Counted from the stretch's first letter, positions 11,413 to 49,556 are shown. The stretch is 64,000 nucleotides of DNA from Clostridia bacterium (GCA_017939755.1 JAGBAJ010000016.1:16302-80301), one strand, 5' to 3'. Notes: generated from the sequence alone by a model not told the origin. Numbers and translations are program-made.

Positions 11413-11640
11413 AGATAATAGTGATGTGATATATAGAACAATGATACATGTAAGATATGGGTTAAGTTTTCTTGGAAAATAGTACACATAAAAAATAAGA
11501 ATAGAAACATGTAAAGAATAAATTGAGAATTCACATAAAATGTGGTAAAACGAAAAAAGGATGTGATTAAGTGTCACGCCAATCCATGATTTTCATACAT
11601 ATGGGGCAACCCAAAATACGCTAAAAAGGAGGAAAATTGC

Positions 11641-12264
11641 ATGGATAATTGTATATTTTCAGATTTTGTTAGAACACTTCTGGCAGGAGAGCATGTATTC
11701 GGAAGCGTTGCCGAAGAAGACGAGTCCACGAAGTCGATGCTCGAAAGAGTAAAGGTTGAAATGGAAAAGGCCAAGGCGAGCTCTGAAGGCATAGGAGATG
11801 TTTATAAGACATATTCCAATGCGGTGAATTCTGCAGATTATCTTTTGGCTCTTATCAAATGTGGTAAGTTTCCTGAAGATAACACACCATACAGCAAAAG
11901 CTGGGGAAAAACTTTTGACTATATAACAGGCTCTTGTCTGAATATAGCATATGGTTACATGCTTCTTCAACAGCATACTAATGGTGACGAAGATGCTTCG
12001 AAGATTGACCTTGGTGGGTTGAGCGAAGAACTTGATGAGCTTGATGTTAACATACCTGCTGACGATGGTGACAATGCTTCGGAGATTGATGACCATTATG
12101 ATGATGGTTACAACGCTTCGGAGATTGATGACCATTATGATGATGGTTACAACGCCTCGGAGATTGACGACGATGATGATGATGATTATTATTGTCGCAG
12201 GAGAGGCGTAAGCAACGATTGTTGTGACGTTTATGATTGTTGTTATGACATTTATGATTGTTGA
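11641..12264 (+). CDS. hypothetical acidic protein with 13-aa tandem repeats and a Cys-rich C-terminal tail (G+C-rich cassette a)
   Basis: 207-aa ORF with an AAGGAGG RBS. G+C and codon usage differ clearly from the flanks. Repeats NASEIDDHYDDGY. The tail is DDDDDDDYYCRRRGVSNDCCDVYDCCYDIYDC. I recognise no family. Confidence 0.6.
   Translation: MDNCIFSDFVRTLLAGEHVFGSVAEEDESTKSMLERVKVEMEKAKASSEGIGDVYKTYSNAVNSADYLLALIKCGKFPEDNTPYSKSWGKTFDYITGSCLNIAYGYMLLQQHTNGDEDASKIDLGGLSEELDELDVNIPADDGDNASEIDDHYDDGYNASEIDDHYDDGYNASEIDDDDDDDYYCRRRGVSNDCCDVYDCCYDIYDC
12073..12172 (+). repeat. 39-bp tandem repeat x about 2.5 inside the cassette-a CDS
   Basis: AA(T/C)GCTTCGGAGATTGATGACCATTATGATGATGGTTAC occurs at 12073-12111 and 12112-12150, with a partial third unit. 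Confidence 0.85.
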
Positions 12265-12321
12265 AGGTTGACTTTTCCGTAATTAGAAGGTTAAAAATAA
12301 CGAAATTTCTGAATCAAAGAA

Positions 12322-12355
12322 AGGACCCATGTGTAAACACATGTGGTCCTCTTTG
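12322..12355. terminator. GC-rich hairpin between the convergent cassette a and glmS (bidirectional terminator candidate)
   Basis: AGGACCCATGTG-TAAA-CACATGTGGTCCT. The T-tract is weak. Confidence 0.45.
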
Positions 12356-12395
12356 CACTATCTACTTTTACTTATATTTTAAAATACGATATGTA

Positions 12396-14231
12396 TTATT
12401 CAACAGTTACTGATTTAGCTAAGTTTCTTGGCTTATCAACATCTAATCCTTTTTCCTTTGAGATGTAATAAGACAATAGTTGTAGCGGTATTACAGATAA
12501 AATAGGAGATAGAAGAGGGTTAGTTTCTTCAACTTTAACCACATTTTCAAATCCTGCATTTGATAAATCTAGGTTTGTAATAATAATAGTTTTAGCTCCA
12601 CGAGTAATAACCTCTTGAATATTACTAATAGATTTTTCAACTAATGCTTCATCTGTTAATATACTAATAACTGTAATGCCTTTTTCAATTAAAGCAATAG
12701 GTCCATGTTTTAATTCTCCAGATGCATATGCTTCTGAGTGAATATATGAAATTTCTTTTAATTTTAAAGATCCTTCTAATGCAACATTGTAATCAACACC
12801 TCTACCAATAAAGAACATATCTTTTTCAGTATAGATTTTCTTTGCAAGCTCTTTCATTTGATCAGCTGTTTTTAAAGATGTTTCGATTTTTGAAGGTAGC
12901 TCTAAAATATCTTTTTTAATATTATTTATAGTTTCTGTATCAACACTTTCTAATATTTCAGCAAAATATACTGCAAGAATTCCAAGAAGTACAACTTGTG
13001 ATGTGTATGCTTTTGTTGAAGCAACAGCTATCTCAGGTCCAGCATGTGTATAAATTGTGTAATCTGCTTCTCTTGTAATTGAACTTCCAATAACATTTGA
13101 AACAGCAAGTGTTTTTGCACCTTTTTCTCTACATAATTTTAATGCTGCTATTGTATCAGCAGTTTCTCCTGATTGACTAATGAAAATACAAAGTGATTTT
13201 TCATTAACGATTGGATTTCTATATCTAAATTCTGATGCAACATCAACTTCTACAGGAATATTACATAGATTTTCAATAAACTTTTTACCAGTTAGCCCAG
13301 CGTGCATTGCAGTACCACACGCAACTATGAATATTTTATTAATTGTAGATAGGTATTCTTTTGAAATATTTATATCGCTAAAATTACAAGCTTCTCCTAA
13401 TTTTAATCGTGAACCAATAGTTTCTCTAATAGCTGTTGGTTGCTCATGAATTTCTTTTAACATATAATCATCAAAACCATTTTTTTCTGCTGCAGATGCT
13501 GCCCATTCAATATTTTTAATTTCTTTTTCATGCTCTACTAAGTTTTTGTCATAGAATTTAATAGAAGAGTTTTCTATTACTGTATATTCATAATCATTTA
13601 GTAAATAAAAATCTCTTGTATATTCTAGTAAAGCTGGAATATCAGAAGCTATATGAAATCCTTCTGAACCTTTTCCTATAACTAGAGGACTATCTTTTCT
13701 AACAACAATCATTTTATCTGGATATAAGTTTGATAAAACTTCTATAGCAAAACTTCCTTTTAAATCAGCAGTAGCCTTTTGTACAGCTGCTAAAAACTTA
13801 TTATCACTAGTTTCCTTTGAAAAATAATAATGAATTAGGTTAGGGATAACTTCTGTATCTGTTTGAGATAAGAAATGGTATCCATTGTCTGATAAGAAAG
13901 CTTTTAATTCATTATAATTTTCAATAATTCCATTATGTACAACAGCAAATGTTTCGCTATTATCCATATGTGGATGTGAATTTTCCTTTGAAGGCATTCC
14001 ATGAGTTGCCCATCTTGTATGAGCTATTCCAATAGTTCCAGTTAAATCATTAAGTCCAGGAATGTTATTTAAGTTACTAACTCTTCCTTTATCCTTCATA
14101 ACACAAATTTTTCCATTTTCCATAGAAGCTATACCTGCTGAGTCATAACCTCTATATTCTAGGGCTGTTAGCCCATTAATTAAAATTGGGTATGCTTTTT
14201 TTGTTCCTACATATCCTACGATTCCACACAT
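12396..14231 (-). CDS. glmS: glutamine--fructose-6-phosphate aminotransferase (isomerizing)
   Basis: MCGIVGYVG N-terminal nucleophile Cys, two SIS domains and the C-terminal ...KPRNLAKSVTVE. Canonical GlmS. Confidence 0.95.
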   Translation of the reverse strand: MCGIVGYVGTKKAYPILINGLTALEYRGYDSAGIASMENGKICVMKDKGRVSNLNNIPGLNDLTGTIGIAHTRWATHGMPSKENSHPHMDNSETFAVVHNGIIENYNELKAFLSDNGYHFLSQTDTEVIPNLIHYYFSKETSDNKFLAAVQKATADLKGSFAIEVLSNLYPDKMIVVRKDSPLVIGKGSEGFHIASDIPALLEYTRDFYLLNDYEYTVIENSSIKFYDKNLVEHEKEIKNIEWAASAAEKNGFDDYMLKEIHEQPTAIRETIGSRLKLGEACNFSDINISKEYLSTINKIFIVACGTAMHAGLTGKKFIENLCNIPVEVDVASEFRYRNPIVNEKSLCIFISQSGETADTIAALKLCREKGAKTLAVSNVIGSSITREADYTIYTHAGPEIAVASTKAYTSQVVLLGILAVYFAEILESVDTETINNIKKDILELPSKIETSLKTADQMKELAKKIYTEKDMFFIGRGVDYNVALEGSLKLKEISYIHSEAYASGELKHGPIALIEKGITVISILTDEALVEKSISNIQEVITRGAKTIIITNLDLSNAGFENVVKVEETNPLLSPILSVIPLQLLSYYISKEKGLDVDKPRNLAKSVTVE

Positions 14232-14259
14232 AAAATCTCAATCCTTTCATTGTTTATTT

Positions 14260-48935: not shown

Positions 48936-48967
48936 CTGAATGACTAAAGTAAAAATAAAAAGAAATT

Positions 48968-49006
48968 GAGCCAGGTAGTGAAGAACACATACCAGGCTCT
49001 TTTTTT
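48968..49006. terminator. bidirectional terminator between nagZ-like gene and cassette e
   Basis: GAGCCAGGTA-N12-TACCAGGCTC followed by T7 on +, and by an AATTTCTTTTT run on the minus strand. Confidence 0.65.
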
Positions 49007-49017
49007 GTAGCAGTAGA

Positions 49018-49437
49018 TTAGCCCTCTTCGGAGGATGAGAGCATAATAAAGGGTTCGCCGTAGCCGTCTCTGACTTCAACACCATCGAGAGAGATTCTCA
49101 TATAGCGTTTGAATGGGAATACCGAAGGATCGATACCCGCTGCTTCTGCAGCTTCGTACAAAGTTTCATCTGGACCATAGTCACAGCTCAAGGAGATGCA
49201 ATTAGAGGGACTTTCATCGAGTTTTCTTGTGATAAGTCTCGACAGCTCCTCCTCGAAAACATCTGCCTTCTTTGTGCTGGGGGTGTGGTTCATCGCCAGC
49301 ATAGAGCCAAGCAATGCGGTCATGAAACCAAGGTCTCCGCTCTCTCCGTTGCTGTGATTACTCAGATTGGCGGTGTCGGTAATCTTATTCCTCCACCATT
49401 TTGCAGCAATTGCTGCTACTGCTTTTACTTCTGCCAT
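49018..49437 (-). CDS. hypothetical protein (G+C-rich cassette e)
   Basis: ORF 49018-49467 with the start moved to ATG 49437 (AAAGGAG RBS). MAEVKAVAAIAAKWWRNKITDTANLS...DYGPDETLYEAAEAAGIDPSVFPFKRYMRISLDGVEVRDGYGEPF. G+C is far above the flanks. I recognise no family. Confidence 0.6.
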   Translation of the reverse strand: MAEVKAVAAIAAKWWRNKITDTANLSNHSNGESGDLGFMTALLGSMLAMNHTPSTKKADVFEEELSRLITRKLDESPSNCISLSCDYGPDETLYEAAEAAGIDPSVFPFKRYMRISLDGVEVRDGYGEPFIMLSSSEEG

Positions 49438-49527
49438 AATAAGTGCTCCTTTCGCTGAAATAGGCATAAGTGGTTTATACGTATGTGGTGTATTTTTTAG
49501 TTCATTACACCGATGAACTTAAAGATT

Positions 49528-49556
49528 ATTATAGCATATGTTTACATAAAAATCAA
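49528..49556 (-). promoter_or_regulatory. promoter of cassette e (TTGATT-17-TGcTATAAT, minus strand)
   Basis: Read directly. It gives a leader of about 85 nt. Confidence 0.55.

Follow-up and report, generated by a model that had tools for sequence, protein, structure and literature searches.

How do single genes of strikingly deviant composition come to lie between the housekeeping genes of an A+T-rich chromosome, and what keeps them there? The question is raised by a 64,000-nucleotide stretch of the Clostridia bacterium assembly GCA_017939755.1 (JAGBAJ010000016.1:16302-80301; hereafter the window, meaning the whole stretch that was analysed), in which five G+C-rich open reading frames (ORFs), here called cassettes a to e together with their flanking signals, stand one by one in the gaps between core genes. 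The window has 30.1% G+C, its cumulative GC skew climbs steadily and its genes lie mostly on the plus strand, while the nearest genomes by DapF are those of uncultured Clostridia, Clostridium sp. CAG:571 and CAG:440 (70-85% identity); it is best read as part of the core chromosome of an uncultured gut bacterium of the Clostridia, with 30% G+C, that comes from ruminant samples and is kin to the latter two. We consider it probable that cassettes a to e are horizontally acquired, moron-like units drawn from a phage or mobile gene pool and seated in this core chromosome, where both the mechanism of their insertion and their functions are what we infer.

The initial annotation, made by eye, described the five ORFs as far richer in G+C than their flanks and different in codon usage, and the computed values bear this out, with coordinates and strands as claimed (Table 1). 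In the 58 other genes of the window, which served as background, the G+C content is 0.303 ± 0.030 and the G+C content at third codon positions (GC3) is 0.165 ± 0.041, with a maximum of 0.272, compared with which the five ORFs have GC3 z scores of +4.6 to +8.3. They also have the five lowest values of an index akin to the codon adaptation index (0.34-0.49, against a background of 0.72 ± 0.06 with a minimum of 0.52), and no other compositional outlier was found among window ORFs of at least 80 aa. The top of the background range belongs to a YdjM-family membrane protein gene (20794-21411, minus strand), its GC3 of 0.27 being mildly raised. The excess of G+C is restricted to the ORF and the hairpin, the promoter-leader stretches having a G+C content of 0.27-0.36. 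One long ORF with a strong Shine-Dalgarno sequence ahead of it fills each island. Pairwise comparison with diverged copies gives ratios of nonsynonymous to synonymous substitution rates (dN/dS) of 0.11-0.16 (b), 0.22 (c) and 0.12-0.24 (e), so that these three at least are real coding genes under purifying selection, in keeping with the proposal that the cassettes are selected genes. All five proteins are acidic, which, at a guess, would fit small binding or inhibitor proteins.

The surroundings of the cassettes are those of a housekeeping region: tRNA-Glu (11155-11229), glmS with its ribozyme, a DUF523 gene (PF04463), guaB, guaA, dapF, the GH3 gene nagZ and the S10 operon. The labels first given to the flanks hold, except for 'HD', since the 529-aa gene in question (36318-37907, minus strand) has no HD-domain match and its sole match is a sub-threshold one to DUF5039. 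As initially described, the cassettes are monocistronic by their sequence signals and occupy gaps between housekeeping genes, with no integrase or transposase beside them and no significant flanking repeat.

Evidence on the movement of whole units is provided by cassette b. Members of its cluster, more than 90% identical in protein, were compared on four kinds of contig. In the window b lies between the DUF523 gene on its left and the 529-aa gene on its right; in L099 the 529-aa gene is again on the right and unrelated sequence on the left; in L094 a DUF523 variant is on the left and an unrelated 115-aa gene on the right; and in L089, a contig of 29% G+C, spoIIM and an XerD-like gene are on the left and a scrap of the 529-aa gene, with LdcA, is on the right. 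In L089, L094 and L099 the ~980-bp unit has 87-91% nucleotide identity, with homology starting at ~35250, just ahead of the -35 box, and stopping at ~36216-36228, just past the terminator, and across the copies there is hardly any change in the promoter and the 58-nt leader, against a difference of ~10% in the ORF. The scrap in L089 consists of 82 nt matching, with 79% identity, the final 20 codons of the 529-aa gene and the bases that follow, implying that the L089 copy descends from an arrangement of the window type that was imprecisely moved or rearranged. As a candidate target-site duplication around b, a 35-nt direct repeat (35227-35261 and 36243-36277) was rejected, repeats of this kind arising at chance level (326/1000 shuffles).

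Similarly, the relatives of cassette e occur in unrelated surroundings, for example in L101, where the neighbours are a tRNA and a GH25 gene, and in L106, where a glycosyltransferase gene and an HD gene flank the copy. These copies, with a protein identity of only 39-45%, have in common a structured leader, a terminator rich in G+C and a promoter that follows TTGnnT-TTTATGTaa...TGnTATAAT. The initial annotation had invoked capture of host-type promoters; however, promoter, leader, ORF and terminator of b form one unit on the four contigs with their differing flanks, and the signals of e are likewise conserved across unrelated contexts, so that for b and e the predicted expression signals belong to the cassette and were not captured from the host.

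The locus of e itself is variable. The order is aminotransferase-nagZ-e-S10 in the window, aminotransferase-e-nagZ-S10 in L007, aminotransferase-S10 with no e in L009, and dapF-aminotransferase-e-S10 with no nagZ in closer relatives (aminotransferase ~88% identical). When the window is compared with L162, L163 and L168, identity is 95-96% in the S10 upstream region, to 49699, and 78-79% from exactly 49559 to 48954-48944, with the aminotransferase gene and dapF at 86-88%. From these sharp identity steps at its ends it follows that the e unit has its own history relative to the flanks, either by much faster evolution or by replacement as a block. It had at first been supposed that e moved relative to its flanks; this was revised, as there are closer relatives without nagZ and the presence and position of nagZ vary too. 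The nagZ gene (47850-48935) is absent between the aminotransferase gene and S10 in L162-L170 and in L009, and in L007 it is found beyond e, on the S10 side, with 72% nucleotide identity. Another variable segment, the 139 nt between the e promoter and the S10 upstream region (49560-49698), holds an A+T-rich hairpin and is absent in L162, L163 and L168.

The wider family of e comprises 17 homologues plus 31 metagenomic and 21 viral loci. The protein matches PHROG 8937 (E 1.9e-19, residues 4-129 on profile positions 7-128 of 137) and is 32% identical to proteins of the Faecalibacterium phages Toutatis and Lelie, the relative in Lelie standing within a run of small hypothetical genes. The claim that only b has a recognisable family is therefore right as regards b (PF05014) and has to be amended for e. 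The composition of the family depends on where it resides: in viral or G+C-rich contigs its genes match their flanks (for example 0.55/0.55 and 0.69/0.69), whereas in every host of 25-32% G+C that was sampled they form islands (0.37-0.48 against flanks of 0.25-0.32). Their GC3 in A+T-rich hosts is graded, from 0.50 down to 0.16, with values of 0.22-0.30 in some lineages.

Recent acquisition is not supported: a, b, c and e are found in sister lineages that are ~10% or more diverged, mostly in the same slot, and being common to these lineages they are not recent arrivals. Thus an 84% homologue of a adjoins glmS on L171, in the same slot, with 89% nucleotide identity across 11509-12623. Cassette c has only two homologues, 78% and 71% identical and both on short contigs, the former in the same slot on L087; here 39249-39921 has 76% nucleotide identity and the flanks have 86-92%. 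The synonymous divergence (dS) of c, 0.54, is close to the 0.45 of the neighbouring HisPhos gene, which fits co-inheritance since the split from L087 with faster evolution of the protein. On the other hand, as initially supposed, these are not ubiquitous core genes. Of 80 related species 77 lack e; among their loci, centred on dapF, L006 and L007 alone have a homologue of e (41-45% identity), and a to d occur in none. In L007, the nearest species, 180 bp separate guaA from dapF, compared with 1177 bp in the window, showing that d and the adjacent 45148-45495 are absent from L007, and c was not found there.

Within the horizontal history that we favour, the donor pool would have had a G+C content of ~45-55% and would have been at least partly phage. 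The five cassettes would have been acquired at different times, kept by purifying selection and left to drift slowly toward the host composition, and at least b and e would move or exchange as whole units together with their own promoter and leader. Insertion would most likely proceed via illegitimate or homology-facilitated recombination of short DNA fragments; we infer a recombinase-free route because mobility genes and repeats are lacking and because of the scrap of the 529-aa gene in L089. The synthesis of e would probably be controlled by a 5' pseudoknot and by occlusion of the start region.

The sharp ends of b in several contexts and the sharp identity step of e could also be produced by an organised mobile-cassette system, with a recombinase encoded elsewhere that recognises the cassette ends as the integron integrase recognises attC. 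Such a system would likewise suit the e-type cassettes on either side of nagZ in two lineages, the inverted repeat that closes every cassette, and the promoter and ribosome-binding site sequence that d and e share beyond chance. We nonetheless regard it as unlikely, since the five cassettes have no end motif in common (pairwise tests of b and c with d and e stay at chance), neither flanking repeats nor an integrase accompany any of them, and the neighbouring-gene scrap carried by the L089 copy points to imprecise fragment transfer. Meaningful terminal inverted repeats were found in none of the cassettes, and of the flanking repeats none is significant. The XerD-like gene beside b in L089 adjoins spoIIM, presumably as the housekeeping xerD does in some Firmicutes, and is also counted against such a system.

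The main rival to horizontal acquisition is selected high G+C or repeated allele replacement. In its native form this would mean vertically inherited genes whose high G+C is kept by selection, for instance through effects on the structure or stability of the mRNA or through evasion of A/U-specific RNases. The GC3 of e, at 0.40-0.50 where the flanking dS is ~0.6-1.9, and that of c, 0.46 in both lineages at a dS of 0.54, would be natural consequences of such selection, as would the G+C richness of every e-family gene in an A+T-rich host. Yet native genes should hardly be spread so patchily over the 80 related loci, b and e occur in unrelated chromosomal contexts, e has phage homologues, and the e family matches its flanks in G+C-rich and viral contigs while showing in A+T-rich hosts the graded GC3 that amelioration predicts. 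Vertical descent of native genes is on this evidence an improbable account.

Several points nevertheless weigh against horizontal acquisition. For a, c and d no donor genome has been identified. The retention of a high GC3 by e across the diverged lineages fits slow amelioration from a donor of ~55% G+C, but could be due to selection for G+C or to repeated allele replacement. As to the mechanism of insertion, there are no target duplications and, for b, there is no nucleotide-level pair of filled and empty sites. The promoters and terminators of the cassettes are consensus matches only, and promoter-like sites as a class number 85, compared with 75 ± 10 in shuffles. Finally, the genome is viewed through the 64-kb window alone.

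In A+T-rich genomes, non-coding RNA classically shows itself as a G+C-rich island equipped with promoter and terminator, and the islands might accordingly be taken for genes of structured non-coding RNAs in which the ORFs are incidental. This is very improbable, and for b, c and e largely refuted, given one long ORF with a strong ribosome-binding site per island, a dN/dS well below 1 for these three, matches to Pfam and PHROG, a predicted structure with a pLDDT (predicted local distance difference test score) of 92 and the absence of any Rfam family from the ORFs. At the gathering threshold the Rfam scan of the whole window returned the glmS ribozyme and two tRNAs only, with no family inside the five ORFs; at a relaxed threshold there was no family in d or e, and permissive scans added only a sub-threshold S10 leader. 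On these scans, in which nothing matched in the islands, the structured-RNA reading was rejected. As for a chimeric insertion of foreign reads during assembly or binning, suggested by the origin of the sequence in a metagenome assembly, it is as good as dismissed by identical cassette-flank junctions in several independent assemblies of different samples and in read-level contigs of Logan (the same sequences being present in four or more independent assemblies), and by the diverged orthologues in the same slots of sister lineages.

Table 1. Positions, composition and predicted signals of the five cassettes (promoter, hairpin and pseudoknot assignments are predictions; GC, GC3 and z refer to the ORF)
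Feature	Position	Strand	GC	GC3	z	Elements
Cassette a	11523-12349	+	0.407	0.351	4.6	promoter weak, unproven; strong ribosome-binding site AAGGAGG; ORF 11641-12264 (207 aa); hairpin 12323-12349
Cassette b	35250-36228	+	0.401	0.430	6.5	promoter; 58-nt leader; ORF 35356-36108 (250 aa); terminator hairpin 36186-36216
b promoter	35269-35297	+				TTGATA-17-TATATT, with TG
Cassette c	39249-39921	+	0.440	0.443	6.8	promoter 39265-39293; ~125-nt leader; ORF 39421-39813 (130 aa, no family); hairpin 39837-39874
c promoter	39265-39293	+				TTGTGA-17-TATAAT
Cassette d	44459-45133	-	0.453	0.446	6.9	promoter 45133-45105; ~146-nt leader; ribosome-binding site AAGGAGG; ORF 44958-44515 (147 aa); terminator 44482-44459
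d promoter	45133-45105	-				TTGATT-17-TGC-TATAAT
Cassette e	48944-49559	-	0.481	0.500	8.3	promoter 49556-49528; pseudoknot leader; ORF 49437-49018 (139 aa); terminator-like hairpin 48999-48968
e promoter	49556-49528	-				TTGATT-17-TGC-TATAAT
e leader, H-type pseudoknot	49487-49518	-				P1 GTTCA 49518-49514/TGAAC 49504-49500; P2 GGTGT 49511-49507/ACACC 49491-49487; A-rich L3 49499-49492

The expression signals deserve a more detailed account. The initial annotation assigned to each cassette a promoter of its own, and near-consensus sites are indeed predicted upstream of b, c, d and e, each with 10/12 consensus matches and, in b, d and e, an extended -10 TG; upstream of a the promoter scan gave no good site, and for this cassette the assignment is unconvincing. 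Because promoter-like matches are no commoner than in shuffles, the support for the promoters of b to e comes from their position and, for b and e, from conservation. The near-identity that had been noticed between the promoters of d and e is real, with 23/30 positions identical (1/1000 shuffles), and extends to the regions around the ribosome-binding site and start (44950-44985 and 49429-49464, minus strand), which have in common AAAGGAG..TTATTATGGC (0/1000 shuffles). This likeness may indicate either a common origin of the expression signals of d and e or convergence on the consensus. A single origin for all leaders was considered and rejected, the comparison of b and c with d and e being at chance level and only d against e, with elements of the consensus type, standing out. 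G+C-rich hairpins had been reported after a to d; a hairpin in fact follows all five ORFs, and as terminators b and d are called, a weakly, while those of c and e fail simple rules for the T-tail or loop.

The AlphaFold2 (AF2) model of the e protein, built on a 16-sequence alignment, has a pLDDT of 92.2, and its nine best Foldseek matches in the PDB are all chains of Tob1, BTG2, TIS21 or FOG-3 (probability 0.98-1.0), the top matches to Tob1 and BTG2 having a probability of 1.0 and template modelling (TM) scores of 0.61-0.73. A BTG/Tob-like fold is thus confidently predicted for e. At the level of sequence there is no match to Pfam PF07742 at the gathering threshold, and a profile search of PDB sequences returned no BTG/Tob protein; weak matches to the BTG family of Pfam, sub-threshold or precomputed, occur in 2 of the 16 aligned homologues (best E 0.0063) and in the weak homologue P0028. 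The predicted fold superposes on the eukaryotic BTG/Tob domain (PF07742; 2d5r, 2z15, 3dju), from which the e family differs in being bacterial and phage, and the BTG/Tob partner CAF1, the deadenylase of the CCR4-NOT complex, has no obvious counterpart here. A literature search for prokaryotic BTG/Tob proteins yielded nothing relevant. The only pointer to a role of the cassettes in immunity or anti-defence, as once proposed, is the membership of e in a family of phage accessory genes.

The leader of e carries the second novelty. A conserved H-type pseudoknot begins ~3 nt past the predicted transcription start, with P1, a 5-bp hairpin (ATTCG/CGAAT in homologues), whose loop pairs with sequence beyond a linker of 7-9 nt, mostly A, as P2. 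Examples of P2 are GGTGT/ACACC, GACAC/GTGTC, GTGC/GCAC, GGTAC/GTACC and AGTACA/TGTACT. Over 12 distinct leaders 95.8% of the cells are paired, and 5/5 pairs of P2 and two pairs of P1 change on both sides; the score was reached by 0/500 shuffles, slid controls are 23-46% paired, and RNAalifold independently recovers P2. The element lies upstream of the e homologues of L006, L007, L101, L106, L110, L121-L128, L141, L162 and L168, and in the ~1.7 Mb searched with a covariance model every copy precedes an e-family gene, with none ahead of a to d or of other genes. Closer to the gene, a conserved UGCC box (49449-49452, minus strand) can, by RNAalifold, pair with GGCA of the AUGGCA start region (49432-49437), and the clade whose genes start with AUGGAG has CUCU at the position of the box. 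This pairing, suggestive though not decisive, would occlude the start or the Shine-Dalgarno region.

On our reading the pseudoknot would be an element of translational control or one that stabilises the 5' end; it could equally serve as a 5' stabiliser or as a protein-binding site. Its plan recalls the preQ1-I riboswitch, similarly a small 5' hairpin with a loop that pairs past an A-rich linker, ahead of the ribosome-binding region. It differs in that the downstream gene is unrelated to queuosine and that no Rfam match was obtained, a permissive scan of the 151-nt leader region (E up to 10) returning no preQ1 family.

Cassette b, by its sequence, encodes an enzyme of the nucleoside 2-deoxyribosyltransferase (NDT) family. 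It matches PF05014 (120.8 bits against a cut-off of 28.8, E 4.2e-35). Its alignment to the solved structures 6qai and 2a0k is split, residues 26-128 and 211-247 pairing with NDT residues 6-103 and 102-139, so that an insert of ~80 residues (129-210) splits the catalytic domain, which is also preceded by a 25-residue N-terminal extension. The active-site segment matches that of the family: DSGTMWEIGYA in b aligns with DCGTAFELGYA of 6qai, and the motif D-x-G-T-x-x-E-x-G-Y-A is kept, including the Glu that we take to be the nucleophile of the NDT family. In b the domain is therefore not in one contiguous piece.

The extremely acidic protein of cassette a (net charge -36) ends in a C-terminal tail rich in Cys, and its gene contains three 39-nt tandem repeats (12060-12188) that encode DDGYNASEIDDHY; this repeat region differs in the 84% homologue, P0029. 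An exhaustive HMMER search of 1.84 billion representative proteins gave three real relatives (84%, 50% and 33% identity), which keep the N-terminal 110 residues, one of them also the architecture of the acidic, Cys-rich tail. As the relatives cover the N-terminal domain, the 207-aa gene model is right; the NCBI annotation covers only the C-terminal 139 aa. A tRNA-linked island was considered for a and rejected, since the window holds a single copy of the 25-nt 3' end of tRNA-Glu, also when 3 mismatches are allowed, and there is no integrase.

The remaining two proteins offer fewer clues. The AF2 model of c has a pLDDT of 62, and no fold match reaches E 0.1. Beside c lies a HIT-family pseudogene (38832-39115) with an internal deletion of ~240 bp, which is intact (174 aa) at 778-1302 of L087, and in the variant P0004 the N-terminus of HIT is joined in frame to cassette c. 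For d no relative was found among 5.8 billion clustered proteins, where it is the sole member of its own family, nor any match in phage, viral-contig, PDB, Pfam, PHROG, PADLOC or NCBIfam searches; it is a true orphan, and its coding status rests on the length of the ORF, the ribosome-binding site and the expression signals. Between the d promoter and dapF the window has an additional ~350 bp (45148-45495, minus strand) that L007 lacks; this stretch has a slightly raised G+C content of 0.34, a terminator-like hairpin (45224-45190, minus strand) and a 115-aa ORF that looks spurious, with no Pfam or Rfam match. For the cassettes in general, PADLOC gave no match and NCBIfam nothing meaningful; a, c and d have no homologues in isolated phages, while c, d and e as single-protein queries against IMG/VR returned no homologues and in PDB sequence searches nothing useful.

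The neighbourhood as a whole is generally fluid, with a variable nagZ, the HIT pseudogene and small ORFs between guaB and guaA that are absent from L007. These last are three in tandem (41750-42082, 42133-42441 and ~42530-42740), with 32-44% mutual identity; all are A+T-rich and without a Pfam family, and the strain variant L005 has one of them disrupted. Related genomes have further G+C-rich single ORFs that bear no relation to a to e (L007 2080-3672, 530 aa; L043 12583-13026; L106 3013-3456), among them a 169-aa gene directly upstream of dapF in L041 (9307-9816); the phenomenon is therefore not confined to this genome. Beyond cassette e there is a sub-threshold match to the S10-Clostridia ribosomal-protein leader (49772-49866, plus strand; 25.7 bits against a cut-off of 35.1), upstream of which lies a perfect TTGACA-17-TATAAT promoter (49729-49757).

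What, then, do the cassettes tell us? If our account is correct, single genes with their own signals can establish and maintain themselves where a small A+T-rich gut bacterial chromosome is most conserved, and can reappear elsewhere intact without a mobility gene, which would extend the moron concept beyond prophages; composition then offers a simple handle for finding such genes in metagenome-assembled genomes. The bacterial and phage family of e would have a fold met elsewhere in eukaryotic proteins that regulate mRNA decay, its short covarying 5' pseudoknot, tied strictly to the family and absent from Rfam, is a new object, and b is flagged as a deoxyribosyltransferase with an unusual inserted segment. 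More speculatively, and with considerable doubt, we suggest that e may be an undescribed and widely dispersed module of ~600 bp, composed of a conserved promoter, a new pseudoknot RNA acting as riboswitch or autoregulatory site, a prokaryotic protein of BTG/Tob fold and a terminator, which spreads between the chromosomes and phages of A+T-rich gut Firmicutes without a recombinase of its own, a to d following the same integrase-free mode into intergenic gaps of the core genome.

Two known systems invite comparison. Integron cassettes, like a to e, hold one gene each, close with an imperfect inverted repeat and occur in differing contexts. The cassettes described here differ from them in having predicted promoters of their own, in being scattered over both strands and in the absence of an array, of a common end motif and of an integrase, none being found near the cassettes among their housekeeping neighbours (the attC consensus was not searched formally). 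A closer parallel is the phage moron: one ORF, equipped with a promoter and a terminator of its own, that has come to lie between two genes which relatives have side by side, and whose deviating G+C content implies horizontal transfer (PMC3594210). The extra DNA between genes adjacent in relatives is seen for d by comparison with L007, for e by comparison with L009, and for b in its differing flanks. With the morons of the HK97/HK022 type the cassettes share the single ORF, the foreign composition and, if the predicted signals hold, a promoter and terminator of their own, and e belongs to a family of phage accessory genes; they differ in standing not in a prophage but between housekeeping genes of the chromosome, where several of them have persisted across species splits.

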